Sequence record: OZ413487.1
DNA length: 64,000 bases
DNA from: a phage
Direction: 5' to 3' (one strand)
A program made the translations under genes and the position numbers. Under the pieces are notes generated by a model. The model searched no databases. It was given only the letters and a program-made list of their open reading frames with translations, and was not told where the DNA came from. Below, in pieces: positions 8,788-63,581 of this stretch (within the stretch, counting starts at the first letter, position 1; each line of letters opens with the position of its first letter).

Positions 8788-8977
8788 GCTTAAATCCGCA
8801 TGGAGCATTGCTGTGGGTGATGAGATCCGTATCCCCGGTGGGAAGACCATTATGAAGATATCTCGTATTGAGTACGAAGGTGACCGTGTATTCCACATCT
8901 TCGCAGAAGATGGTCGAGAAATTTATATACAGGCAGGTTCTCACATTTATATCCGTAAGAAAGGGGACGACAAATGA
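8780..8977 (+). CDS. hypothetical protein
   Basis: ATG 8780 after AAGGATGG SD (track 8771). Confidence 0.45.
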   Translation: MFKLKSAWSIAVGDEIRIPGGKTIMKISRIEYEGDRVFHIFAEDGREIYIQAGSHIYIRKKGDDK

Positions 8978-9303
8978 CAGAAATCATCATTTCAACTGCA
9001 GGGTATGTGTTCCTGACAATCATTGCACTGACTATTTTGGTGACAGTGTATGGGTTTGTTATCCTTCCTATCCTTGAGACATTTAGTTTGTGTCGGTGTT
9101 GGAGAAAAGCTTACGGTCCACAACCATGGAAGGACTGGCCCCACCTGGTGCGCTTAGCGTTCTCTTATGCTTACGATCACTCCAGTAGTGCATGCATAAC
9201 CGGATACCACGCCCACAACTGGAGCTGGGAAGGGTTGAGGAAATGGAATGTTACAAAGACCATACCTCTGCGCATGTACAAACCTAAAAACAAAGACAAC
9301 TGA
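8974..9303 (+). CDS. membrane protein (N-terminal TM helix)
   Basis: 109 aa; AAGGGGA SD; hydrophobic N-terminal segment. Confidence 0.5.
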   Translation: MTEIIISTAGYVFLTIIALTILVTVYGFVILPILETFSLCRCWRKAYGPQPWKDWPHLVRLAFSYAYDHSSSACITGYHAHNWSWEGLRKWNVTKTIPLRMYKPKNKDN

Positions 9304-9611
9304 TACTTGAAAATTCTTGGCATATCAAGTATAAGGGGGATTTCTAAAATGGATTTCCTCCTTTTGATATTTCACCGGGCCGGATATTTTAAAATTCTTA
9401 GAAAATCAGAAAATGGATCGAAAACTAAAATGGATTTTTCAGAGTAGGCGCGACAAGCTGAATAACTCATCCTATCGTTTGCACCATATTCCAGGCCACC
9501 ATTATAGATTTCCCACACATGCTAACCTCCCTCTACTAGAACTTCCTCCACTTACCCTTGACCTTCTATGGTAACAATCTAACCGCTATCTTGAAGTTGC
9601 TGTGCAGCTTT

Positions 9612-9760
9612 CCAGGTACTCGATCTACTTTTCATTTCAGGGCTTGGATTTTCTGAAAATTTTTCTCGATAAATTTCTCAGTACTCGATCTGTTTTTCGT
9701 TTTCTGAATCGGATTTTCTGGAAATCGTTCCGGCTCTCGACCTGAAATTTTTGGGGACGA
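9612..9760. repeat. degenerate tandem repeats (about 70-bp unit x2) in non-coding region
   Basis: gtactcgatct, ggattttctg and tttttcgttttc motifs recur in the same order; aaaatggattt recurs 4x across 9340-9790. Confidence 0.5.
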
Positions 9761-9941
9761 AATCGATTTTTCGTTTTCAGAAATGGATTTTTAAAATTTC
9801 TATATGGGAATATTTTATGGGATACTGTTTTATAGGAAATTGTTACGGAGGGTAATTAGCGTGCTAATTAAATTTATTAAATGCGAGGAGTTCTCATTTA
9901 GAATTTTGAATGATAATCATTCTCGTTTGCAGAATAACGGG

Positions 9942-9961
9942 CAGGCCCGGTGATTGTCTCC
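9942..9961. repeat. GC-rich 20-mer, left copy of an exact inverted repeat pair
   Basis: caggcccggtgattgtctcc; exact reverse complement at 17381-17400; degenerate direct copy near 10077-10100. Confidence 0.6.
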
Positions 9962-10319
9962 CGGCCCCTACTGCCCCGGCTTGTTATTATAGTATCACAC
10001 AGGACAAAGAAAGCAAGGATTTTTTGCATAAATTTTTAAATGATAATGATAACCGTTCTCATTTTATGCAGCGCCCATCCCCGGTGGTTGTCTCCCCCGT
10101 CACCGGTGCCTGCCGTCCTTTCGATAGGTATATCGTGCCACCTGGCGGGGCCGCTGTCAACACTTTTCAAAAAATTTTTCTAACCTGATGCGCTAACCGC
10201 TGCAACCTGGCGGGGTCAGCCTGGCAGGACCTAACTGACCGGGTAGGAGAGAATGAAGGCTTGTAAACCTGGTGGGCCTATGCTACAGGATAGGTAACAA
10301 TTGAAGAGGAGGTACAAAA

Positions 10320-10487
10320 ATGAAAGGTAATATGATCCCCCTAGAAAATGTAGCTATTAATGACGCTGAGGCTATCGCCCTGGTTGAAAAGGCTATGGCG
10401 GGAGCGTTGGAACATAAAGAAGAGTACGAAAAATGGTGGTTAACCTGGCGGGGGCGGCAGGTGGATTCTATCATAAAAATAATTTAA
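10320..10487 (+). CDS. hypothetical small protein
   Basis: 55-aa ORF below the track cutoff; ATG after GAGGAGG SD; translated by hand to TAA. Confidence 0.4.
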   Translation: MKGNMIPLENVAINDAEAIALVEKAMAGALEHKEEYEKWWLTWRGRQVDSIIKII

Positions 10488-10495
10488 AATAGTCG

Positions 10496-10523
10496 TTGAC
10501 AACAAGGTTAATCATGGTATTAT
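10496..10523 (+). promoter_or_regulatory. sigma70-like promoter
   Basis: TTGACA-N16-TATTAT with upstream aaaatagtcgttgaca motif also present at 1899-1912. Confidence 0.5.
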
Positions 10524-10573
10524 TACCCTACAAGGTGAACAACACCGCACTAACCAGTAAAGAGGATAAATTT

Positions 10574-10771
10574 ATGAACGCATACGGGATCAAAGTACGT
10601 CGCAACACTCGCCAGGTGGTCACCAATCAAGTGATTTGCCGGGTGGATGTAACCATCAACAACGGGCAAGGCCTTTATAAATTTCGTCGCGGTCATAGCT
10701 ATACCCTGCAACAGCTTAATCGTTGCGCCCTGACAAAAGGTCAGATCAACCATTGGTTTAATAAAAAATAA
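10574..10771 (+). CDS. hypothetical protein
   Basis: 65 aa; ATG 10574 after AAGAGGA SD; track start 10496 lies in the -35 box. Confidence 0.5.
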   Translation: MNAYGIKVRRNTRQVVTNQVICRVDVTINNGQGLYKFRRGHSYTLQQLNRCALTKGQINHWFNKK

Positions 10772-10835
10772 GTATTGACATACAGTCCGACACCAAATAC
10801 ACTAAAAGCACAAAAGACACTAAGAGGATAAAATC

Positions 10836-11234
10836 ATGAAAACCACTACCTTTAATTTTGATAATGCAGACTTTTCTTTTTCTGATGTCAAGAACTGCCG
10901 CCGTGATCGTGGATTTTACAAGGCTTATAATCTGGTGGGCCTGGACGATGACAATAATTTGCACGAAGTAGCTGAGATCCGGTATTATGCCGCCGCCAGC
11001 GGTAACACTAACTACTGCGTTTTTTGGATACACGACAACAAGAACAATAAGTACGGTTATACTGGTGGCAAGGCTAGCGGTCACGGTTATGATAAAGCCA
11101 ACGCTGCACTTGAAAGCGCATTAAATGCCATGGGAATCACTGCCGACGGCTGGATCTATGAAGAAGAGTTTTTGGCGGCACTTGCTGCCCACCTGGGCTA
11201 TAAAAAGCACATTGTAACATGCGCCCACGAATAA
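10836..11234 (+). CDS. hypothetical protein
   Basis: 132 aa; AAGAGGA SD; TTGACA at 10775. Confidence 0.55.
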   Translation: MKTTTFNFDNADFSFSDVKNCRRDRGFYKAYNLVGLDDDNNLHEVAEIRYYAAASGNTNYCVFWIHDNKNNKYGYTGGKASGHGYDKANAALESALNAMGITADGWIYEEEFLAALAAHLGYKKHIVTCAHE

Positions 11235-11321
11235 AAAAAAAATTATTGACACGCTGCAAAATTCAAGTAAACTAGGCACAAAAGGCGGGAATGTTTCCCG
11301 CCAACACGAAGGAAAAAGATC

Positions 11322-11717
11322 ATGAATAAAAACGTACGCCGCATCATGAACGAACTGGCAAACGATGAAAAAATTATTGATATGCATTTGGTCAACATTT
11401 GCCGCCGTTGTGTAACATATAACAACCGCGCCGCAAAAGCGCGTGAGATGAACGCAAAAGGCACCTTAAAGCCCTTTCAGGTGGTTGTAAAATCTATGAC
11501 CAGTGCAGCAGGCCAGGCGCATGACCACAACAACGGGAGCACTAATATTGATCCATCTTACGTAATGAAACGGATCCGGACTTGCAAGAATAAAGAGCAG
11601 GTGTATAACGTCATAGATTGGCTGGACTCCCTGGGTGACGTGGTTTACAATAGGTTTTCTGCAGCTATTGAAATTCAGTTAGACAGGTTGGACGGGAAAG
11701 TACTGAAAACTTACTGA
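11322..11717 (+). CDS. hypothetical protein
   Basis: 131 aa; GAAGGAAA SD; TTGACA at 11246. Confidence 0.55.
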   Translation: MNKNVRRIMNELANDEKIIDMHLVNICRRCVTYNNRAAKAREMNAKGTLKPFQVVVKSMTSAAGQAHDHNNGSTNIDPSYVMKRIRTCKNKEQVYNVIDWLDSLGDVVYNRFSAAIEIQLDRLDGKVLKTY

Positions 11718-11764
11718 GTTTATTTTTAGATGGCCTTGACTCCAGGGCCATCAATAAAGTAAAC
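11717..11764 (+). repeat. intergenic stem-loop element, copy 1
   Basis: tttttagatggccttgactccagggccatcaataaagtaaac; 7-bp stem gatggcc/ggccatc with 10-nt loop; contains TTGACT..TAAACT. Confidence 0.6.
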
Positions 11765-11994
11765 TAATCCCAGTTAAGCGAAAAAGGAGGCTTGAAGATG
11801 AGCACTACACGCCAGCACACAAAGGTAACTATTATCGTTTGCATCATTGGTTATATCCTGGCGCAAATGTTGATGGGTAGCGCTAACGGTGTCGCAAAAT
11901 TTTTCTTAAACTTTTAATTGACAAGCTAACTTAGATCAGTATACTAAACACATAAACGGGAAAACTTCCCAGAACACCAAAAGGAGAAAACATT

Positions 11995-12345
11995 ATGAAT
12001 ACTTCCATCACTATGACCGCCGAAGAAAAAGCCCTGCAGATCGCCGCTCTGAAAAAACAGATTGCAGAACTTGAAGACAAGATCGACAATTTTGAAATCG
12101 ACGAAGACAAATACGACGATAAATATGATGAATGGTTGGACGAGATCTACGGCGAAATTATGATCGGAAACATTTCTTTTCTTCCGTCGCGTATCCTCAA
12201 GGAGCTAGATCCTATCGCTTACCGCTGCGGATTTAGCGACTACATCGACAGCCTGGATATTGAGGACGATGAAGAATACCAGGAATTGCAGACAGAGCTT
12301 GAAGAAGTGAAAGAAGAGCTTGCAGAACTGGAAGAAAACGAGTAA
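11995..12345 (+). CDS. highly acidic small protein
   Basis: 116 aa; AAAGGAGA SD; promoter 11917-11944; D/E-rich with heptad-like segments. Confidence 0.6.
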   Translation: MNTSITMTAEEKALQIAALKKQIAELEDKIDNFEIDEDKYDDKYDEWLDEIYGEIMIGNISFLPSRILKELDPIAYRCGFSDYIDSLDIEDDEEYQELQTELEEVKEELAELEENE

Positions 12346-12392
12346 GATTATTTTTAGATGGCCTTGACTCCAGGGCCATCAATAAAGTAAAC
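12346..12392 (+). repeat. intergenic stem-loop element, copy 2
   Basis: Identical to copy 1 over the hairpin and flanks. Confidence 0.6.
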
Positions 12393-12434
12393 TTTATACT
12401 GTTAACACTGAACTAATGCATAGGAGTTAAAACC

Positions 12435-12680
12435 ATGGCAGCACTAATCACCAAATATTATGCCCCTACCAACACCAAAAGCGCCCGTATCATGGTAAAA
12501 GGCTTCGGACGTAAAAAGGTTTACACTTGGGATTATTCCCTAGACATGGAAGACAACTACACCAACGCGATGACCGATTTTATTAATGAACTAAATAAGC
12601 AGATCTTAACCAATTATAAGGTGACCGACATCGCCTATGTTGGGGAAGGTGGGATCTGTTTTGTCGGTATTGTCAAATAA
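12435..12680 (+). CDS. hypothetical protein
   Basis: 81 aa; TAGGAG SD. Confidence 0.55.
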   Translation: MAALITKYYAPTNTKSARIMVKGFGRKKVYTWDYSLDMEDNYTNAMTDFINELNKQILTNYKVTDIAYVGEGGICFVGIVK

Positions 12681-12755
12681 GCTGTTTTTTCGGTGGTCCT
12701 GGTGGCAGGGCCATCTATAAAGATAGTTTATTAACACCATGAAAGGAGAAAGTAC

Positions 12756-13109
12756 ATGATCAGCGGGGCTAGTTTTATTATTGGCGCTATTGCTACAGCT
12801 TTAATTGTAAACAAGATCCAGGATAAAAAGGAAAGAGGAAGTACCGCCCTTGCAGAATATCCATTTTGGACATTCAACGATAACGAAGATTATATTATAA
12901 AGTATAAAAATAAAGAAGGTGACCAAGTAACACCGCGACCGATCCCGGCTTACAAGATGCAGGAAACACTATACCGCTTGGAGGCAGGGGGCGCAAAAAT
13001 TGTGGACTTTTGGGGATACGATCACACAGATCAGGAAGTTATAAAGCGCCGTATCCGGGCTATTCAGGCCAATATTGAAGTTAGCAAGGGGGGAATATAT
13101 GAAGATTAA
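12756..13109 (+). CDS. hypothetical protein (N-terminal hydrophobic helix)
   Basis: 117 aa; AAAGGAGA SD. Confidence 0.55.
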   Translation: MISGASFIIGAIATALIVNKIQDKKERGSTALAEYPFWTFNDNEDYIIKYKNKEGDQVTPRPIPAYKMQETLYRLEAGGAKIVDFWGYDHTDQEVIKRRIRAIQANIEVSKGGIYED

Positions 13110-13296
13110 TTTTGAGAAAATTGTAAAGCGATCTCATGATTCCGAAGAGCTGCCGGAACGCCGCCAGCGTAACAATAAACTGAATAAGCCAAAAAGATTT
13201 GGGAAGATCTGGCGGAATCATTATGATCGTAAATTGCCGGGCCTCCTTTTGGAACGTGAACGGCAGGCGGAACGATACCGCCACAAAGGCAACTAA
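13099..13296 (+). CDS. small basic protein
   Basis: 65 aa, R/K-rich; ATG 13099 after GGGGGG SD. Confidence 0.4.
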   Translation: MKINFEKIVKRSHDSEELPERRQRNNKLNKPKRFGKIWRNHYDRKLPGLLLERERQAERYRHKGN

Positions 13297-13303
13297 CAAC
13301 CAA

Positions 13304-13331
13304 CGCCCCGCCATCGTGCGGGGCTTTTTAT
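13304..13331 (+). terminator. rho-independent terminator
   Basis: cgccccgc-catcgt-gcggggc hairpin followed by TTTTTATTT. Confidence 0.6.
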
Positions 13332-13454
13332 TTCTACCCTACGAATAGCGCCCCTGGTTGGCCCCACAACGCCCTAAAAGCCCCCTACCCATGCAATCCC
13401 ATTTCTTAACCTGAAAACATCGTCAAAGGCTGTTTTAAAGCGTTAAAAATATTG

Positions 13455-13482
13455 TTGACATCTAAAATATTCTAGATATACT
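13455..13482 (+). promoter_or_regulatory. sigma70-like promoter
   Basis: TTGACA-N16-TATACT. Confidence 0.5.
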
Positions 13483-13517
13483 AATCACATCAAAGCGAGA
13501 AGTAAGGAGTAAACGCC

Positions 13518-13778
13518 ATGCGTAAATTAAAAAATTTTGATAAAGTTGATATTGTCCTGAATAATTTTTACTACTGCAATAACAAGGCCGTTTGGTGGCG
13601 TGATAGTTCCACCGATAAAGTCAAGGCGCGCTTTCTCCAGGGGCACTGGCAAGGCCGCCCAGTGATTAAAATCATGGGGCAATTGGTAGCGTTTAAAAAT
13701 TGCCGCCGTGTTGATGACGTTGAAGAGATTTTAAACATTTTGCGCCACAATAATTTAAAAAATAGTGTTGACAAGTAA
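13518..13778 (+). CDS. hypothetical protein
   Basis: 86 aa; AAGGAG SD. Confidence 0.55.
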   Translation: MRKLKNFDKVDIVLNNFYYCNNKAVWWRDSSTDKVKARFLQGHWQGRPVIKIMGQLVAFKNCRRVDDVEEILNILRHNNLKNSVDK

Positions 13779-13795
13779 ATCTCAATAAGTATAAT
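13768..13795 (+). promoter_or_regulatory. sigma70-like promoter
   Basis: TTGACA-N16-TATAAT preceded by aaaatagtgttgaca. Confidence 0.55.
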
Positions 13796-13852
13796 TAAAA
13801 ACACAGGCGGGAAAACTTCCCGCCACTAACAAAGAAAACAGGAGAAAATATC

Positions 13853-14476
13853 ATGACCACCGTTAACATTACCACAGGTTACAATTTATCTTTCGACGTG
13901 CTGACCGACGAACAAAAAGAAAAAGCCGTGGAAATGGTCCGCGAAAGAGAAGAACACAGCGGGGATAACTTTTTTGCAGAAAGTGTAATTGAGTACTATA
14001 AAGAATATGTTTTTCCAGAGTACGGCCTTGAAGATACCGATGTACATTGGTCAGGCTTTTGGTGCCAGGGTGACGGCGCGTCAATCAGTGCGGAAAACGT
14101 GGATTTAGAAAAATTCTTGCGTAAAGTCAAGTCTCTGACTAAATTCCGCTCAATTCGTCACTTGTTCGGCACAATGCACGATGGCGAGTTATCCGCAAGT
14201 GTTGAGCGTGATCCATATAGCCGCTATAGTCACGAAAACACTGTAAACGGATACATCGATACTACATGGCTAGACCTGACCACCAAACAAGAAAACAAAG
14301 TGGAAGATCTGGAAGAGCTGATCACCGAGACGGTACGGGAGTTATCCCGCAAGGTTTACGTAGACCTGGAGGAGGCCTATCTTGAACAATTCACCGCCGA
14401 AAACTTGATCGGCCTTATCGAGGCCAATGATTGGCGGTTTGATGTCGATGAACACGGTAAGATGACTTTTTCATAA
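13853..14476 (+). CDS. hypothetical protein
   Basis: 207 aa, largest ORF of the module; CAGGAGA SD. Confidence 0.6.
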   Translation: MTTVNITTGYNLSFDVLTDEQKEKAVEMVREREEHSGDNFFAESVIEYYKEYVFPEYGLEDTDVHWSGFWCQGDGASISAENVDLEKFLRKVKSLTKFRSIRHLFGTMHDGELSASVERDPYSRYSHENTVNGYIDTTWLDLTTKQENKVEDLEELITETVRELSRKVYVDLEEAYLEQFTAENLIGLIEANDWRFDVDEHGKMTFS

Positions 14477-14564
14477 ATAAAGTGTTGCAATAACCTAAAA
14501 ACCTGCTATATTAAAACTCAAGGGGCAAGACGTTTGCCCCACACAAAACAAAGAGGTAAACATT

Positions 14565-14945
14565 ATGAAAAACACTACTAAAGCTATTGACACCGTTATG
14601 TTTAACCTGGTTACATTCCGTGAAGATATGAAAGATCTTCCACGTGAAACAGTGTGCGATCACATTGAAAACTATCGCAAACTAATCAAAGAGTTGCCTT
14701 TAAAACGTGACCAGTATGCGGCTAACGCTATGCTTAACGCCATGATCAAAAAGATGATTCAGTGTGATTTAACTCTGGCCTATGATTATGCAGGTGGTCG
14801 TTTTGCAGTATACAATCAGCCCGTGCCTGGTATGAGCACCACCGAAGAATTGCACGCGTTAAATCTGAAACAAGATGTATGGGATAACATGCCCCGCGTG
14901 GTGGTGTGGGCAGAAAGCGGAAAGATTTACGGCGATAATTTTTAA
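14565..14945 (+). CDS. hypothetical protein
   Basis: 126 aa; AAGAGG SD; TTGCAA..TATATT promoter-like at 14485. Confidence 0.55.
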   Translation: MKNTTKAIDTVMFNLVTFREDMKDLPRETVCDHIENYRKLIKELPLKRDQYAANAMLNAMIKKMIQCDLTLAYDYAGGRFAVYNQPVPGMSTTEELHALNLKQDVWDNMPRVVVWAESGKIYGDNF

Positions 14946-15009
14946 TCAGGTAACAGGCGGCATATTTGCCGCCTTATTGTTAAACAGAACTGCAAAAGAG
15001 GTACATAGA

Positions 15010-15381
15010 ATGGAATTTATTATTTTGGCTGTAGTAGTTGCCTTGTTCAACGCCTGGATCGCTGGCAAGATAGGTAGATCCGCTTTTCTATGGTTTGTTA
15101 TATCTATTTTCCTGGGAGTGGTTGCAACTATTGTATTGGTTATCCTTGCAATTGTTGACAAGGGCGATAATAGAAAGGGTAAAGTGTTTTCCGACCTGTA
15201 TGACGCACAAACGTTTGTCAACGCCTATTATAGTGATCTTCCAGTCTCCCTACGCTGCAGCCTGGCACAACAGGTTTTTGATGAGGCTAAAACCAGAGAC
15301 CAAGCCCATGAGATATGTTTAACTGAAGCGGATCGCCTATTTGAGAGGAATAGAAAATATGTGGACCAGCCGTTTAAATAA
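15010..15381 (+). CDS. membrane protein (two TM helices)
   Basis: ATG 15010 after AAGAGG SD (track 14875); hydrophobic stretches. Confidence 0.5.
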   Translation: MEFIILAVVVALFNAWIAGKIGRSAFLWFVISIFLGVVATIVLVILAIVDKGDNRKGKVFSDLYDAQTFVNAYYSDLPVSLRCSLAQQVFDEAKTRDQAHEICLTEADRLFERNRKYVDQPFK

Positions 15382-15580
15382 CGCCACGTTAATTAATCCC
15401 TTTAGTGAAGATTTGAAGCCAGCCGCCTGGCGTGACGGATTCAATAACGAACGCTTTATTTTCAGGCCTGATCTTGAGGAATTTTATAACAATGGATCGA
15501 ACAACAGCGGAGATAATTTTTCTTGTGGTGTGCGTGGTGATAGGACTCCTGGGGGCCATTGTAAACCACGTCACTACTAA
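15359..15580 (+). CDS. hypothetical protein (doubtful)
   Basis: GAGAGGAA SD but N/G-rich low-complexity product; competing TM micro-ORF in another frame (15492..15617). Confidence 0.25.
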   Translation: MWTSRLNNATLINPFSEDLKPAAWRDGFNNERFIFRPDLEEFYNNGSNNSGDNFSCGVRGDRTPGGHCKPRHY

Positions 15581-15600
15581 CAGGAGGGAAGGGGGAGACG

Positions 15601-15720
15601 ATGACAACCAAAGATAAGCCATGCGCTGATAAGGTGCGCCGTGTTATGGTATGGCTTGAGATTATCGCCCTTGAAATATTGTTAGGCGTAGGGATGTACT
15701 TTATCGCTGTAAGTAACTAA
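15601..15720 (+). CDS. 39-aa hydrophobic peptide
   Basis: Below track cutoff; ATG after GGGGGAG SD; single TM-like segment; followed by terminator. Confidence 0.35.
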   Translation: MTTKDKPCADKVRRVMVWLEIIALEILLGVGMYFIAVSN

Positions 15721-15723
15721 GAG

Positions 15724-15752
15724 CGGCCCCCGATCATGGGGGCCTATCTTTT
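15724..15752 (+). terminator. rho-independent terminator
   Basis: ggccccc-gatcat-gggggcc hairpin then TATCTTTT. Confidence 0.6.
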
Positions 15753-15858
15753 AAAAAATTTTTCTTCCGGGGTGTTGCAATCCGGTCCGGAATGTGGATA
15801 ATAACAATCAACGGGGAGCTAATCCCCACCACCACAAAAACCAGAAAGGAGAAACAAA

Positions 15859-16059
15859 ATGAGCAACAATATCCGCGTTATTAACTTCAAAAAAGAAGAA
15901 AAAATTGCCGTGCTGATTGACGGTCAAGAAATCTTCAAGGGCGACTATGAAGATCATCAAACGGCGATTAGTATCACTCGCGTGATTGGTTATCATAATT
16001 TCTACCCCCAAGGCGCTGAGGCAGCAGTTAAACGAATCAAAGAGATTGTAGGCCTGTAA
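15859..16059 (+). CDS. hypothetical protein
   Basis: 66 aa; AAAGGAGA SD. Confidence 0.55.
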   Translation: MSNNIRVINFKKEEKIAVLIDGQEIFKGDYEDHQTAISITRVIGYHNFYPQGAEAAVKRIKEIVGL

Positions 16060-16060
16060 A

Positions 16061-16108
16061 ATTTATTTTTAGATGGCCTTGACTTCAGGGCCATCGATAA
16101 AGTAAATT
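16061..16108 (+). repeat. intergenic stem-loop element, copy 3
   Basis: Same 7-bp stem gatggcc/ggccatc; one loop and one flank substitution (compensation-free stem conservation). Confidence 0.55.
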
Positions 16109-16152
16109 TAAACCCTGTTAAAATACCACGCAGTTAACAAGGAGTGATAGAC

Positions 16153-16452
16153 ATGTTTATCCAGGCTAATAATCTTTATTTCTTTGATGGTCAGATCGTA
16201 GATGGTGTGGAAGTGGAGATCACCGGGTGCCCTGGCGGTCAGGCTATGACTTTTCGGAATAATGCCTTTGATGATTCTCATATCGTTATAAGAATGGAAG
16301 TTACGAAGCTGGACGACAAGAAAACACTTATTGACTATTCTGTGAAAGATCATCCAGACTACCGCATGATCCATGGTGATTTGTGCATTGTTGACCGTGA
16401 CAAGGTGGGCGGCATTGTGATCGCTATTGTGAACGATGTTTTCTCAAACTAA
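16153..16452 (+). CDS. hypothetical protein
   Basis: ATG 16153 after AAGGAG SD (track 16144 GTG). Confidence 0.5.
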   Translation: MFIQANNLYFFDGQIVDGVEVEITGCPGGQAMTFRNNAFDDSHIVIRMEVTKLDDKKTLIDYSVKDHPDYRMIHGDLCIVDRDKVGGIVIAIVNDVFSN

Positions 16453-16469
16453 TTTCAGCAGGCGATTTT

Positions 16470-16820
16470 ATGAAAGTCAAACTATATTACCTTAATGAGC
16501 TTAACCCCCTTGCCCAGGTCCGCGCCCTAGCTAATACCTTGATTTGTGAGAAATCTGTATATTGTGTTGAGCTTAACGCCATGCGTGAACGTCTCAAAGG
16601 TGGTTACTTTGACATCCATGCTGCAATCAACGGCCTGAATATGGAATTTATACGCTTACGTAACAGCCGCCGGAATCTGGCAAGAATGGAACAAGATCCG
16701 GCCCACCTTCGTAAACTGGTTATTGAAAATCATCTGATGTTTAATGCCGAGGGGGATTATTACCATTTTCACCGCAAACGCTGGTACCGTGGCGGCAATA
16801 CAGGCAAGAATGCAAAATAA
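16470..16820 (+). CDS. hypothetical protein
   Basis: 116 aa; weak SD. Confidence 0.5.
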   Translation: MKVKLYYLNELNPLAQVRALANTLICEKSVYCVELNAMRERLKGGYFDIHAAINGLNMEFIRLRNSRRNLARMEQDPAHLRKLVIENHLMFNAEGDYYHFHRKRWYRGGNTGKNAK

Positions 16821-16856
16821 GGCCCCTAGCAGGGCCTGCAGCAATATAATCACATA

Positions 16857-16889
16857 AAGGCCATGCGGTTGCATGGCCTTTATTATTTT
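16857..16889 (+). terminator. rho-independent terminator
   Basis: aaggccatgc-ggtt-gcatggcctt hairpin then TATTATTTT. Confidence 0.65.
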
Positions 16890-17380
16890 GGCGTTACAAC
16901 GGCATACGGGGCGCTTAAAAAATTTTTAAAGAAGTACTTGCATCATTCCCGACAATATGGATAATAAGAGTTGTCGAGGGGGAGGCCCCCAATCGTTGAC
17001 CAGATAGATAGGAGTTAAAATCATGGCTATTGTTACCGCTGGCTATCTTCAAAGATGCGGAAGCAAAACAACGCCGGATCTCAATACATGAGATCATCAA
17101 CCTTAACGCTGGAGGCACACCATACCGCCCAGGACCTGGCCGTGAGATGGACAATACGCTAGCGATCCTGAAGATACGCCGTAAACGGTCCTCCCTTACT
17201 CTGGACTCATTACACACAATGCAGCCTCCGTTCCAGGTGACCGGGAAACGGATCGCCAGGTCCTGGACAAAGGCCAATGATCGGACCGTATAAATAAAAG
17301 TGTTTTGGTACTGATTTTGGGGTTGACTTGTTCGGCCCCTTTTGCTATTCTTATTAAACGGGCGGCACTTGGGAACAGGG

Positions 17381-17400
17381 GGAGACAATCACCGGGCCTG
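17381..17400. repeat. GC-rich 20-mer, right copy of the exact inverted repeat pair
   Basis: ggagacaatcaccgggcctg is the exact reverse complement of 9942-9961. Confidence 0.6.
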
Positions 17401-17510
17401 CCTGTCATATAAGAACTATAAAAACCGTTGACATCTGCCATGGGGTGGGGTAACATTTATCTTGAAGGGGCAAAAGTGCCCACACAACAACCAAGAGAGA
17501 GGAAAACACT

Positions 17511-17783
17511 ATGTCAAACTGGATTAATCAAGAAGTCGAATCACGTTTTAATGCTATTTGGGATCTCATCGAAAAAGAAGACGGCACATCAAGCCCCTAC
17601 CTCAACAATTTGGAATTCCATTTTGTGGAAGCGATGAACGCAGAACATGATCACGAAGGTGGCGCGGATGAGTTCGCTAAAGGTTATGGCTTTAACAATG
17701 CCAACGAAATGATCGAGGCGGTAGTACTCCAGGCTGAGGAAGATTATCAACTAAAAACGCTTGAATTCTGCCGCCGCAAGTAA
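17511..17783 (+). CDS. hypothetical protein
   Basis: 90 aa; AGAGAGGAA SD; TTGACA at 17428. Confidence 0.55.
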   Translation: MSNWINQEVESRFNAIWDLIEKEDGTSSPYLNNLEFHFVEAMNAEHDHEGGADEFAKGYGFNNANEMIEAVVLQAEEDYQLKTLEFCRRK

Positions 17784-17843
17784 TAAGATAATGACACGGG
17801 CCAAAAGGCCCACTAATCAGAACCGCACAAAGAGGTAAACATC

Positions 17844-18107
17844 ATGAAACGTCTTGATCAGCTCAAATTAGTTCAATATATGGCTTATCGTGTTCTTGAA
17901 GTCCAGAAAGGTAGCAAAAAAGAGGTTTGCGAGAAAGCTTATAAGATCTTCACTCGCAAAAAAGATGACTGGATGCTACGCCAGACTAAAAAGGCTGACA
18001 TCTTGGGGTACCTGGAAGAAGAGATCCGCCTTGAAGAGCAAGAAGAGATCCGCCGTAGTGAGGCAGATTATCAGGCAGCTTGGGAAAACTGGATGAGCAA
18101 CAAATAA
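17844..18107 (+). CDS. hypothetical protein
   Basis: 87 aa; AAGAGG SD; K/E-rich. Confidence 0.55.
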   Translation: MKRLDQLKLVQYMAYRVLEVQKGSKKEVCEKAYKIFTRKKDDWMLRQTKKADILGYLEEEIRLEEQEEIRRSEADYQAAWENWMSNK

Positions 18108-18126
18108 TACAACAAGGTGCACGGTC

Positions 18127-18151
18127 AGGGGCTTAAAGCCCCTTTCTTTTT
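18127..18151 (+). terminator. rho-independent terminator
   Basis: aggggc-ttaa-agcccct hairpin then TTCTTTTT. Confidence 0.65.
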
Positions 18152-19019
18152 GTCTCCTCTTTTCCTACCACAAATGGCCCCGCCTGGCAAATGGAATAAT
18201 CAACAAGCCAGCAATTAACCCCACTGTACAAACATACATATAAAATAACTATTGCATAATTTTTCATTGTGTGGTAGCAGTGCCATTTTTACACGTTTTT
18301 CCTTCCAAAATTGCACGTAATGCAGCATTTGCACAAAATTTAACCTGATGCATATCTTCAATAGCTTGTCAACAACTAAAAATCTTTATAAGTCATACAC
18401 TTACATAACTACAAAAACGTTTTCTACGTGAAAAATCGAGTATAACTATAGCCGCCAGATCTCAGAATTTACGTACGCTCGCCATTCTATAGCCTGCTAA
18501 GCATTTATTCCAACCATAGAATAACGGAATAGTCAATACCTGCATAAAATAATTATTCGTGTAAACTGCATAACATAAATCGGCCCAGGTGTCAACATTT
18601 TTCGTAAACAGTCTGGAATTGTCACGTTAGGTTACCATAAGCAGAGAAATCTTTAGTCGTCTAATGTTTACTGTACATTACTATACTGACTGGAATCATT
18701 AGATGACTAAGAGAAAGATAAGAAATAATTAATAATGTAATTATTTTACCTGTAACAATAAGGCAACTATGCAAACGAATGGCATGGCGCGACGGAGTCG
18801 CGACATAATATAAAAGCAGTAACCATCACCCCCGTGATAGTTTGTCTGCAAACTATTAATCAGATCATAGTTGCCTTGTATTTAGTTAATCATGACATGA
18901 CAAGCAAGGCAACTATAGATCTGCTAATAGTTGCCCTGCTTTTATATTATGTCATGCTAATTATAATCAGTGCGATTATTGTCATGTATAATTATTGTCA
19001 TGCAAACGAATGGCATGGC

Positions 19020-19160
19020 TGATTATCGGTGTGTAAACAGTCAATCATGTAAATGGTTAGCATGTGAACAATCAGGAATGTAAACAATCCAGTGTGTAAA
19101 CTAATAGGTGTGTAAAAGTGTCATGTTGTGTCAGTTAGGTCACATTATGTCAGACAAGTT
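19020..19160. repeat. iteron-like array of (g)tgtaaac(a) motifs
   Basis: At least six tgtaaaca/tgtgaaca/gtgtaaaa variants within about 140 bp, flanked by 18-bp direct repeats gcaaacgaatggcatggc at 18771 and 19002. Confidence 0.5.
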
Positions 19161-19395
19161 TTTCTCCTCTTTGTCAAGTGCTGCATGAAAAATTTACAAG
19201 CTTGTATGGTAGCATTTTTGCGGCCCTGTTTACATTCAGTAATGTATGTATAATCCTTGTTGTGTGGGCGTTTAGACGTCTAGACGGTTGGAAGTCCACA
19301 GGTCAATATCTAATCTATCGGCTGCTAACTATATCCCACACAAATAGTAAGAAATATGATTGTTATATGCGTAAACTGTAACTCATGTTATCAAT

Positions 19396-19765
19396 CCCTG
19401 TATGGATCGCCAGTGGTGCGCATAATAGGTATTATGTTAAATTGCCCGTAATGATAACAGTTCTCACAATGATAGGTATTCTCATTCATCCACACAAAAT
19501 AGGTTGCAAATGTTGTGCCACTGTGTGAACGGCCTGGCCTATTAATTTCTCTCACTGCCTCGATATTTGAGAATTGTTATCCCTGTATGGATCGCCAGTG
19601 GTGCGCATAATAGGTATTATGTTAAATTGCCCGTAATGATAACAGTTCTCACAATGATAGGTATTCTCATTCATCCACACAAAATAGGTTGCAAATGTTG
19701 TGCCACTGTGTGAACGGCCTGGCCTATTAATTTCTCTCACTGCCTCGATATTTGAGAATTGTTAT
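19396..19765. repeat. perfect tandem duplication, 2 x 185 bp
   Basis: Unit ccctgtatgg...gagaattgttat at 19396-19580 repeats identically at 19581-19765. Confidence 0.85.
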
Positions 19766-20823
19766 AAGAATGAGAAGTATTCCCATTCCGTCCGCCTGGC
19801 AGCACTCCTGTAGGTCCTGCAAGGACTCTAGCTGAAAGCTAGACCCTTCGGGCCTCCCTGTAGGTCAGGTCAAAATCGTGGTAGAATTGGGCCTGTTCAG
19901 ATATTTCTGGCTGACTCTTCAGGTCTGTGTGGGAAAAGCCAACCTCTCCGGCGGGGCAGGGGGTCATGACGGGAAAATTGCAGGTCAATTAAAAAATTTA
20001 CGTGGTGTATGAAGCGCTCTTCAGGTAAGGCATGTATTATGGGATGAAACCCTCTTCAGGCAATGATATTTGTGGGTGTGATATTTGCTGGAAAGCCAGA
20101 TATGACGGGACTCCCGGCGGGGATGGGGTAGTACAGACAGGGAAAATATGAGAATGTAGTTGGGGAAATTGATCAGACAGGTAGAGTATGGAATATGTTA
20201 CAAGTATGTTAAATATGGAGGTTGAATATCTGTAGGATTTGTGTGTAAAATCAAAGACTTAAGGGGTGTTGTGGTATTTTCTATAAATAATTCAAGTTTA
20301 ATAGGCAATATTTGTCTCTATCCGCTTTGTGTGGTAAACAGATTCAGATTAGATTGGTTTACAAGTGTATACATAATATACAAATTAAAGATACAAGAAA
20401 CCCCCCTCCCCCTTCGGCTACCATTCACCTTTTCCTCTGACTGGTACTTAAACACTTATTCAGACTCTTCAGGTTATCACCCATATATCATATGGCAGTG
20501 ACTGGTGTCCTCCGGCCCCTCTTTCGTCACCCGTCCGCTTCGCCATGCTAATGCCATAGCCAATGGTTCGGTTGTTCACTCTGTTCACTCAGGTGTATCT
20601 CCATACCCCTTCAAACCGAAGAGAACAGAAAACCCGAATTACTCGGTAAAAGAAAAGAGAAGAACTTAATTTTATCAGGATAGGCAAGAATGTCAAGGCA
20701 TGACTGCTCACTAAACAAGCAAACAGTCATGTGTGGAAGGTAAGTGATTGTGGTGGTGGGAAATTTAGTTGAAAGATGTGTTATAGGTGCTCCCAGCACT
20801 TTAGCCGGGTAGCTAATTGTGTG

Positions 20824-62767: not shown

Positions 62768-62842
62768 GCCCTGTTAGCTTAGTGGATAAAGCAGCGGCCT
62801 TCTAAGCCGTTGACACTGGTTCGAGTCCAGTACGGGGTGCCA
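62768..62842 (+). tRNA. tRNA-Arg (anticodon TCT)
   Basis: Cloverleaf folded by hand: 7-bp acceptor (two G-U), loop CTTCTAA, T-loop TTCGAGT, encoded CCA. Confidence 0.7.
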
Positions 62843-62846
62843 AATT

Positions 62847-62933
62847 GGGGAGTTATCCCGTAGAGGTAGCGGTGTAGACTGTAAATCTATTGTCATTGCG
62901 ACTCGGGTGGTTCGACTCCACCACTCCCCACCA
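62847..62933 (+). tRNA. tRNA-Tyr (anticodon GTA), type II
   Basis: Acceptor ggggagt/actcccc, anticodon loop CTGTAAA, long variable arm, T-loop TTCGACT, CCA. Confidence 0.7.
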
Positions 62934-63047
62934 AATTTATATTTTTAGATGCATAAATAATACAGATAATGGCATTGATATTTATCGTCGTTTATACTAG
63001 TCACTAACTGCTCGAAAATCAGTGTCATTATCAGTATAATTTATAAA

Positions 63048-63138
63048 GGAGGGTAGGGAGCAATGGTGCTCAAGCGGTCTTGAAAACCGTCCCGTTGAGG
63101 ATGACTCGATGATGGTTCGATTCCATTACTCTCCGCCA
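63048..63138 (+). tRNA. tRNA-Ser (anticodon TGA), type II
   Basis: Acceptor ggagggt/actctcc, anticodon loop CTTGAAA, long variable arm, T-loop TTCGATT, CCA. Confidence 0.7.
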
Positions 63139-63236
63139 CATTGTTGACCTTGTAATTAAGCGAAAGCCGGAAGCAGAACCGGATTATCAAATGTTACAGT
63201 CGTCATCGCCGACTAGCAACATGGTCAACATGCTGA

Positions 63237-63335
63237 GCTAGGTAAGCCCTTTGGCAAGGGCGAGGATTTTTAATCCTGAAAATAGACGAGGTAGTCGTTG
63301 AATACATAGGTGGTTCGATTCCATCACCTAGCACC
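63237..63335 (+). tRNA. atypical tRNA-like element (possible tRNA-Lys TTT with long insertion, or pseudo-tRNA)
   Basis: Perfect 7-bp acceptor gctaggt/acctagc, good D-arm and T-arm (TTCGATT), but weak anticodon stem and about 30-nt insert before T-arm; no complete CCA. Confidence 0.3.
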
Positions 63336-63340
63336 TTTTT

Positions 63341-63416
63341 GCTGATGTAGCACAATCGGTAGTGCAATTGATTTGTAATCAATAGGTTGTAGGTTCAAAT
63401 CCTGCCATCAGCACCA
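63341..63416 (+). tRNA. tRNA-Thr (anticodon TGT)
   Basis: Acceptor gctgatg/catcagc, anticodon stem attga/tcaat, loop TTTGTAA, T-loop TTCAAAT, CCA. Confidence 0.8.
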
Positions 63417-63417
63417 A

Positions 63418-63492
63418 GGCCCTGTAGCTGGAAGGTTCAAGCAAGCGACTCATAATCGCCAGACGGTGGTTCAATTCCACCCAGGGCCACCA
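63418..63492 (+). tRNA. tRNA-Met (anticodon CAT; Met vs Ile2 not distinguishable)
   Basis: Acceptor ggccctg/cagggcc, loop CTCATAA, T-loop TTCAATT, CCA. Confidence 0.75.
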
Positions 63493-63503
63493 AATAGTAA
63501 ATA

Positions 63504-63581
63504 CTCCGCGTAGCTCAGCTTGGTAGAGCGCCTGATTTGGGATCAGGAGGTCGAGTGTTCGAATCACTTCGTGGAGACCAC
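63504..63581 (+). tRNA. tRNA-Pro (anticodon TGG)
   Basis: Acceptor ctccgcg/cgtggag, D-stem gctc/gagc, anticodon stem cctga/tcagg, loop TTTGGGA, T-loop TTCGAAT, CCA. Confidence 0.75.

Follow-up and report, generated by a model that had tools for sequence, protein, structure and literature searches.

Candidate hairpin-promoter elements at sites of gene loss and exchange in the small-gene region of an rV5-like phage

In the early region of phage T7, RNase III hairpins of about two helical turns with a small internal loop stand between the early cistrons and contain no promoters. Here we describe, in a 64,000-nt stretch of phage DNA (sequence record OZ413487.1; this whole stretch is called the window, and positions are counted from its first letter), a repeated 49-nt intergenic element in which a conserved hairpin probably coincides with a sigma70-type promoter. 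The closest described motifs are the promoter-early stem-loops (PeSLs) of T4-like phages (Arbiol et al. 2010, PMC2839356; Comeau et al. 2014, PMC4122927). These repeated intergenic motifs join a strong sigma70-type promoter to an AT-rich tract and to a stem-loop that in many cases overlaps the two promoter hexamers or sits between them. They are neighbours of ORFans in hyperplastic regions, where recombination among them removes, adds or exchanges cassettes, and their stem-loops terminate transcription in reporter assays (PMC2839356). Sigma70-type promoters are concentrated in the region of short open reading frames (ORFs) of rV5 (Kropinski et al. 2013, PMC3606486) and Certrevirus (Buttimer et al. 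2020, PMC7344957), and their abundance in the region treated here is already known. The passages of these two papers that were searched contain no description of a hairpin-promoter repeat, of its role at insertion or deletion (indel) junctions, or of the conserved non-coding region reported below.

The interval 9600-18400, which holds all copies of the element, was used as a query against phage records and was matched by 134 of them at 90-97% identity, nearly all Vequintavirus (rV5-like Escherichia coli myophages), with vB_EcoM_10C2_SA_NWU as the closest record (97%); by this match, the window phage is itself a Vequintavirus. The pieces of each match all lay on one strand, the close relatives examined were colinear over the interval without exception (13/13), and the G+C content is uniform across the region (0.42-0.44), which does not bear out the AT-rich surroundings reported in a preliminary description of this DNA. 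The rV5 counterpart of the interval is ORFs 198-164, the far end of a long transcription unit ('10-1-238-164') proposed by Kropinski et al. (PMC3606486), and the annotated direct terminal repeat of Gotham maps near window 19150-19800, about 1 kb past the last gene. The explanation that we favour, and regard as likely when taken as a whole, is that the interval lies at the far end of a long Vequintavirus region of small genes that the host RNA polymerase transcribes, that the element is a composite of a conserved + strand RNA hairpin and a sigma70 promoter whose copies occasionally recombine, and that a 20-mer inverted repeat in the same interval is the leader of a second promoter module and no cassette boundary.

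The four copies of the element are:

11717-11765 (+), copy 1; embedded predicted promoter at 11736-11765 (TTGACT-18-TAAACT); folding energy -24 kcal/mol, z -7.0
12345-12393 (+), copy 2; predicted promoter at 12364-12393; right junction of the cassette shared with phage KKE7M
16060-16108 (+), copy 3; predicted promoter at 16079-16108
12680-12728 (+), copy 4, degenerate; fold retained, -35 lost; folding energy -24.3 kcal/mol, z -6.0

Three repeats and a degenerate fourth had been noticed before and are real, although their length is 49 nt and not 45. Copies 1-3 are mutually 92-100% identical and copy 4 is 67% identical, the stem-loop core occurs three times in the whole 64 kb, and every copy begins 0-1 nt past the stop codon of the upstream gene. 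The predicted fold consists of an outer AU-rich helix of 10 bp, a 2x3 internal loop, an inner GC-rich helix of 10 bp and a tetraloop, with folding energies of -20 to -24 kcal/mol (z -6 to -7) in all four copies; despite its 67% identity, copy 4 takes the same fold as the others. We compiled 27 distinct element sequences from 13 relatives and used slid partner columns as a control: 97.6% of cells were paired, versus 36-57% with the slid columns. Changes on both sides were found at four outer-helix pairs, and the inner-helix changes were all from A-U to G-U, from C-G to U-G or from U-G to C-G, which retain pairing in + strand RNA only. Because pairing is kept solely in that RNA, the hairpin in the + strand RNA appears to be what is selected, and transcripts from upstream would therefore have to cross the element. 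On such read-through RNA, the element would fold into a hairpin of 10 + 10 bp that might attenuate transcription, protect the 3' end or serve for processing.

In copies 1-3, the loop and the 3' arm read TTGAC(T/A)-N18-TAAA(C/T)T with both the -35 and the -10 conserved, and in all copies an AT-rich tract, TTTATTTTTA, stands directly 5' of the inner stem; the earlier observation that the repeat combines a stem-loop with a TTGACT..TAAACT promoter-like core thus holds at the sequence level. In three of the four copies, this sigma70 promoter (TTGACW-N18-TAAAYT) would restart transcription for the next gene. A comparison of KKE7M with PATM points in the same direction: AATAAAGTAAAYT of the element aligns with the -10 of an ordinary PATM promoter (TTGCAA-16-TAAACT). 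The 5' hairpin and gene that follow are the same in both, and so is the distance to them; this homology supports the element as a promoter. The element is confined to Vequintavirus (121 records, with about three detectable places in each) and one Justusliebigvirus, KKE7M.

Copies of the element and ordinary promoters of the region are direct repeats of one another over 25-49 nt of near-identical sequence, and homologous recombination between them would therefore occasionally delete, add or swap promoter-gene units. In phage ime and in L005, an IMG/VR contig, one hybrid copy replaces copies 1 and 2 with an exact loss of 628 bp, including genes 5 and 6; among 60 records listed (of about 120 matching), only ime and magaca matched this junction in one piece. 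241Ecol014PP carries a copy 2/copy 4 hybrid and has lost gene 7, a deletion type seen in this phage only among the 14 records listed from the same set, and L006 has an extra cassette of 564 bp with three ORFs between two TTGACA promoters, at window position 13455. KKE7M, which belongs to another subfamily, contains 470 bp (L037 2078-2548) that are 90% identical to window 11917-12391 and comprise the promoter at 11918, a 5' hairpin, an acidic 116-aa gene and element copy 2. This cassette replaces a PATM_163-type gene, at a place where other Justusliebigviruses have a different gene; its left junction lies inside the promoter, in the shared sequence TTGACAAGATAACTAAAATC, and its right junction inside AATAAAGTAAAYT of the element, which shows, on the sequences compared, that the cassette was exchanged by recombination at promoter homology. 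Element-mediated gene loss and exchange between phages are thus demonstrated by the junction sequences, and the earlier suggestion of gene shuffling at promoter-stem-loop repeats is supported by the ime/magaca, L005 and 241Ecol014PP deletions and by the KKE7M transfer. Shuffling of ORFan cassettes at promoter sequences, known in T4-like phages, would accordingly operate also in rV5-like phages, which are widely used candidates for biocontrol and therapy, and could move a gene between phage subfamilies. Genes 5, 6 and 7 are dispensable, because viable isolates lack them, and the elements may offer natural, expression-ready insertion and deletion points for engineering.

All sequence-level features of PeSLs were found in the element: it is a repeated intergenic combination of an AT-rich tract, a sigma70-type promoter and an overlapping stable stem-loop, it flanks ORFans in a plastic early region whose gene content varies among relatives, and indel or replacement junctions fall inside the motif (ime/magaca/L005, 241Ecol014PP and the right junction of KKE7M). 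Unlike PeSLs, of which there are dozens, the element has only three to four copies per genome at fixed syntenic positions, recombination events at it are rare, and its two-tier hairpin of 20 bp encloses the -35 and shows covarying pairing of the + strand RNA. It occurs in the Vequintavirinae and has no sequence homology to the T4-like motifs. Judged by these features, the element is a PeSL analogue in a new phage lineage and not a member by descent, since both lineage and sequence are unrelated to those of T4-like phages; no paper in the literature searched names PeSLs alongside rV5, Vequintavirus, Vequintavirinae or phi92. The comparison with T7 is looser. As with the RNase III sites of T7, hairpins of about two turns with a small internal loop would lie between early cistrons transcribed by the host RNA polymerase, and the array also encodes a T7 gp1.1 homologue, but the element has no sequence similarity to those sites and contains a predicted promoter.

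The 20-mer CAGGCCCGGTGATTGTCTCC had been described as an exact inverted repeat, and this is correct: it occurs at 9942-9961 (+) and 17381-17400 (-), with 0 occurrences expected by chance, and the inverted repeat extends to 29 nt at 93%. It belongs, moreover, to a family of three copies, which lie next to predicted promoters as follows:

9934-9962 (-), leader copy A; contains the 20-mer at 9942-9961
9989-10016 (-), predicted promoter P_rev(A) of copy A; -35 TTGCTT (complement of 10011-10016), 16-nt spacer
9989-9994 (-), -10 of P_rev(A); TACTAT (complement of these positions), preceded by TGA
10079-10116 (-), leader copy B; degenerate, promoter doubtful
17323-17351 (+), P_rev-type promoter of copy C; TTGACT-17-TGcTATTCT, called by the promoter scan
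17361-17408 (+), leader copy C; the 20-mer at 17381-17400 is its reverse complement

The modules share one layout: a predicted promoter is separated by about 25 variable nt from GGAGACAAWCACC...TGCCYGYYAT, which is the 20-mer in reverse complement. Across genera, this predicted promoter (on the opposite strand) has a -35 of CTTGCAA, CTTGATC or CTTGCTT and a -10 of TATATT, TATTCT or TACTAT, separated by a spacer of 16-17 nt that often ends in TGn; hexamers and spacer length are conserved, the spacer sequence is not. The 20-mer would thus be the transcribed leader of a second conserved module without relation to the shuffling at the elements. Copy C points in the direction of the genes and copies A and B in the opposite direction, which would take their transcripts towards the three iteron-like repeats by way of Fur-box-like palindromes and an AT-rich stretch.

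Several observations weigh against the explanation outlined so far. Promoter activity, read-through and hairpin function are all inferred from sequence comparisons, and copy 4 lacks the -35, so that the promoter and hairpin functions would be separable. For the leader module, RNAalifold yielded no consensus structure, and pairing of arms within a genome was not significantly better than pairing across genomes (2168 of 20000 permutations did as well); z-scores of single sequences were about 0, and a locally suggestive covariation in the leader (ATGAC/GTCAT, ATAGC/GCTAT, ATAAC/GTTAT) was discarded, being contradicted by FENT2 and Mydo. Element-mediated events are rare, each seen in about 1-2 of 120 records, and the number of detectable copies stays at three in about 120 genomes; it may therefore be for the sake of expression that the elements are retained, recombination being a side effect. 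A number of other indels have non-promoter junctions, among them that of gene 19 and the window phage's own deletion of 2.3 kb with respect to its closest relatives, which removed about eight small genes (L004 9444-11756), is joined at an 8-nt microhomology (CCGCTGGC, 17036-17043) and leaves an out-of-frame stub of 22 codons. Otherwise, synteny is conserved among the relatives; the variation at repeat elements expected from a comparison of related genomes is present, but the region is mostly syntenic and the events are few.

An alternative is that the elements function mainly at the RNA level, as RNase III-type processing sites, 3'-end stabilisers or attenuators, and that their promoter-like hexamers and their part in recombination are incidental. 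The two stacked 10-bp helices with their 2x3 internal loop, conserved by compensatory and by strand-specific G-U changes, the retention of the fold in the degenerate copy that loses its -35, and the stability of copy number and position in about 120 genomes would all agree with this alternative, which we regard as possible but less probable. Against it stand the conservation of the -35 TTGAC and the -10 TAAAYT in copies 1-3, the homology of the element's -10 part to the -10 of an ordinary PATM promoter and the position of deletion and transfer junctions in the elements. The two readings are not exclusive.

Leader copy A lies in a non-coding region of about 1 kb with the following features:

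9304-10319, non-coding control region between the gene at 8974-9303 and gene 1
9606-9791 (+), three iteron-like direct repeats with spacings of 65 and 74 nt; core CTCGATC..TTTTTC..GGATTTT
9906-9924, Fur-box-like palindrome A, TTGAATGATAATCATTCTC; 15/19 to the Fur consensus
10042-10060, Fur-box-like palindrome B, GATAATGATAACCGTTCTC; 16/19, the best match in the window

This region is 92-98% identical within Vequintavirus, and its core (9868-10025) is conserved in 263 records from several genera. Within 9600-18400, DNA-level matches to distant phages are restricted to the segment 9906-9964; among the phages concerned are Serratia Kashira, Enterobacter FENT2, phiTE, CR3, SSE121, Mydo, Klebsiella mydoviruses, phAPEC8/ESCO13-like phages, Av-05 and Aeromonas 2L372X. 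An AT-rich stretch (9790-9900) adjoins the iteron-like repeats, and equivalent repeat triplets with spacings of 63-78 nt are present in Kashira, FENT2, phiTE, Mydo and CR3. The palindromes resemble enterobacterial Fur boxes such as that of E. coli fhuA, matching GATAATGATAATCATTATC at 15-16 of 19 positions: within palindrome A, ATAATCATTCTCGTTT agrees at 16/16 nt with the E. coli K-12 fhuA promoter, and the central 13 nt, AATGATAATCATT, are the same in 11 of the 12 phage sequences compared, CR3 having AATGAGAATCATT, one base off. In minus-strand direction, palindrome A (TTGAATGATAATCATTCTCGTTT) follows directly downstream of the copy A leader. In distant phages, two to four Fur-like palindromes are spaced by about 29-38 nt and often match in overlapping 6-nt registers, and nine of these phages have clustered sites of 14-16/19. 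In contrast to host Fur boxes, the palindromes stand in a virulent phage, are arrayed beside iteron-like repeats and have no iron-related gene downstream.

The order of three iteron-like repeats about 65 nt apart, two to four Fur-like palindromes, a GC-rich leader and a facing sigma70 promoter is conserved across the Vequintavirinae and was also found at L013 2720-3120, L014 2720-3110, L015 2190-2620, L017 1240-1640 and L018 1200-1620. The distant phages have, after this arrangement, a small convergent gene (phrog_19316) that is missing from Vequintavirus. None of the ORFs in the region is conserved as coding, and the rV5 'ORF198' (window 9910-10188) was rejected as a coding sequence (stop at codon 7 in ESCO13/ZCKP1, short in others). 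GGTGATTGTCTCC resembles the ToxI repeat and phiTE is a relative, but a pseudo-ToxI was likewise rejected: the escape locus of phiTE is at 106.7 kb and the homologous site at 39.6 kb. A search of 9300-10400 against Rfam at E <= 5 gave no meaningful match.

This presumed control region is, to judge by the literature searched, previously undescribed; it is conserved across the Vequintavirinae and partly in the Stephanstirmvirinae and Plateaulakevirus, and it might, though we think this rather unlikely, be an origin or a switch that responds to or titrates Fur. Copies A and C would then be parts of replication origins whose Fur-like palindromes couple firing to host iron or titrate Fur and, at A, promoter-driven transcripts would run into the AT-rich unwinding region and the iterons as in promoter-dependent phage origins. 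The conservation of the whole order (iterons, palindromes, leader and facing promoter) in Vequintavirus, Seunavirus, Certrevirus, Mydovirus and Kashira, the 16/16 nt shared by one palindrome with the fhuA promoter, and the matches of 14-16/19 to the Fur consensus, often in overlapping 6-nt registers, are in line with it. Iterons and Fur-like boxes are both absent, however, from copy C, GC skew drops near 9 kb without changing sign, no initiator-like family was found in the neighbouring proteins (the upstream protein of 270-310 aa in distant phages has no family assignment), the excess of matches of at least 14/19 over the whole window is modest (11 versus 3.8 in shuffles), and the literature searched contained nothing on the region. 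If it were true, operator sites of the host type would allow large virulent enterobacterial phages to sense the iron regulation of the host or to manipulate it; in any case, the region is a candidate, open to testing, for the origin or early control region, which in these phages is still unmapped.

Ordinary rho-independent terminators, the next alternative for the elements, would also be GC-rich hairpins directly after stop codons, and the stem-loops of PeSLs do terminate in reporter assays (PMC2839356). We consider this very unlikely, for neither strand has a U-tract after the hairpin (AAUAAAG comes next on the + strand, UAAAAAU on the - strand), and the terminator scan skipped the elements, yet called canonical sites elsewhere in the region:

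13305-13324 (+), intrinsic-terminator-like hairpin followed by TTTTTATTT
15725-15744 (+), terminator-like hairpin
16854-16883 (+), terminator-like hairpin of 13 pairs followed by a T-run
18127-18143, terminator-like hairpin after gene 22

The last alternative, in which the 20-bp inverted repeats terminate a mobile or invertible cassette of 7.4 kb (the bracket of the preliminary description), has in its favour an exact pair for which 0 is expected by chance. It is hardly credible and was rejected, because the 13 relatives are all colinear and retain copies A and C, 9942 and 17400 coincide with no indel boundary, neither inversion nor absence of the segment was found, and no recombinase or transposase was found among the ORFs (Pfam, PHROGs); in addition, a third copy lies inside the left end of the interval, copy A is conserved in phages that do not have the rest of the interval, and the flanks, ATAACGGG and CCTGTCAT, form no target duplication.

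Beyond the elements and the leader modules, the array comprises about 21 ORFan genes in about 13 promoter-led units. The promoter scan found 36 sigma70-like sites, versus 22.2 +/- 4.0 in shuffles; nine scored at least 10/12, all on the + strand, and seven of these nine lie directly upstream of ORFs. When the promoters of element copies 1-3 and three weaker sites are added, the total is about 13 for about 21 ORFs, several of which are coupled, so that the claim of an own promoter for nearly every gene stands as to the many sigma70-type sites but not as to their number. Each unit would be headed by a sigma70 promoter, and in about half of the units the mRNA would start in a GC hairpin; such hairpins (-9 to -15 kcal/mol) open 7 of the 13 predicted 5' untranslated regions. 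The promoters resemble the early promoters of Vequintavirinae, which have the consensus AAAA..TGTTGAC-N17-19-TATAAT and are concentrated among short hypothetical ORFs according to the rV5 and Certrevirus papers (PMC3606486, PMC7344957), and four of them (P195, P192, P186 and P168) are already annotated in rV5. The following were predicted:

10496-10523 (+), TTGACA-16-TATTAT with TG extension; 11/12
10775-10803 (+), TTGACA-17-TACACT
11246-11273 (+), TTGACA-16-TAAACT; followed by the 5' hairpin GGCGGGAATGTTTCCCGCC, -14.6 kcal/mol
11918-11945 (+), TTGACA-16-TATACT; left junction of the KKE7M cassette
13455-13482 (+), TTGACA-16-TATACT; site of the extra L006 cassette
13768-13795 (+), TTGACA-16-TATAAT; 12/12; followed by a 5' hairpin
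14485-14512 (+), TTGCAA-16-TATATT with TG extension; followed by a 5' hairpin
15775-15802 (+), TTGCAA-16-GATAAT; followed by a 5' hairpin
17428-17456 (+), TTGACA-17-TAACAT (rV5 P168); followed by a 5' hairpin

The genes of the array and the gene preceding the control region are:

8974-9303, gene before the non-coding region
10320-10487 (+), gene 1, 55 aa; phrog_21957
10574-10771 (+), gene 2, 65 aa; phrog_7119
10836-11234 (+), gene 3, 132 aa; phrog_7028
11322-11717 (+), gene 4, 131 aa; phrog_13245
11798-11917 (+), gene 5, 39 aa, hydrophobic; deleted with gene 6 in ime, magaca and L005
11995-12345 (+), gene 6, 116 aa, very acidic, coiled-coil-like; phrog_9294; gene of the transferred cassette
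12435-12680 (+), gene 7, 81 aa; deleted in 241Ecol014PP
12756-13109 (+), gene 8, 117 aa; phrog_12734
13099-13296 (+), gene 9, 65 aa; T7 gp1.1 homologue, PF08200
13518-13778 (+), gene 10, 86 aa
13853-14476 (+), gene 11, 207 aa; phrog_5162
14565-14945 (+), gene 12, 126 aa
15010-15720 (+), genes 13-16, 123, 73, about 41 and 39 aa; overlapping or coupled, several membrane-like
15859-16059 (+), gene 17, 66 aa
16153-16820 (+), genes 18 (99 aa) and 19 (116 aa); gene 19 absent from rV5, Gotham and L005
17023-17091 (+), stub ORF of 22 codons; remnant of the 2.3-kb deletion
17511-18107 (+), genes 21 (90 aa) and 22 (87 aa)

All ORFs of the array belong to PHROGs of unknown function, in agreement with the earlier statement that none has a recognisable function, with the exception of gene 9, which matches the T7 gp1.1 family (PF08200; 42.4 bits with a cut-off of 21, E 9.5e-11), the sole Pfam family among them. 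Sequence searches of Pfam, PHROGs and the PDB gave no function beyond T7 gp1.1; genes 6 and 11 have no relative in the PDB by sequence, and gene 11 has distant relatives in other viral contigs. A role of the encoded proteins in anti-defence or host takeover is speculation.

The left end of the array also carries four ACCTGGYGGGS repeats within 10140-10453 (+), namely ACCTGGCGGGG at 10140, 10205 and 10443 and ACCTGGTGGGC at 10267, versus 0.03 expected; three of them are spaced by 62-65 nt, and JLBYU08 lacks exactly one unit of 65 nt between the first two. The three GC-rich acctggcgggg repeats noticed earlier are therefore real, but all lie at this end and bracket nothing. They were rejected as Chi sites, from which they differ, and true Chi is not enriched.

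In the whole window, Rfam at gathering score identified tRNAs and one group I intron and no other RNA family. The intron match lies at 140-375 (RF00028, 64.7 bits versus a gathering score of 50). Seven tRNA genes are clustered at 62768-63580, including a 99-nt ARAGORN call with a four-base anticodon (atcc) at 63237-63335, which is a weak tRNA in Rfam (35.5 bits).

Downstream of the array, 18108-20800 is a long stretch without convincing ORFs that contains many short direct and inverted repeats (e.g. 18769/19000 and 18802/18936) and spans the genome-end region, the 'non-coding' box of the rV5 map. Inside the counterpart of the Gotham direct terminal repeat, we found an exact tandem duplication of 185 nt (19394-19763) that is missing from rV5, isim, Gotham and 10C2 and may be genuine or have arisen in assembly at the genome end. 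Both of its copies hold two further Fur-box-like palindromes each (TAATGATAACAGTTCTCA and AATGATAGGTATTCTCATT).

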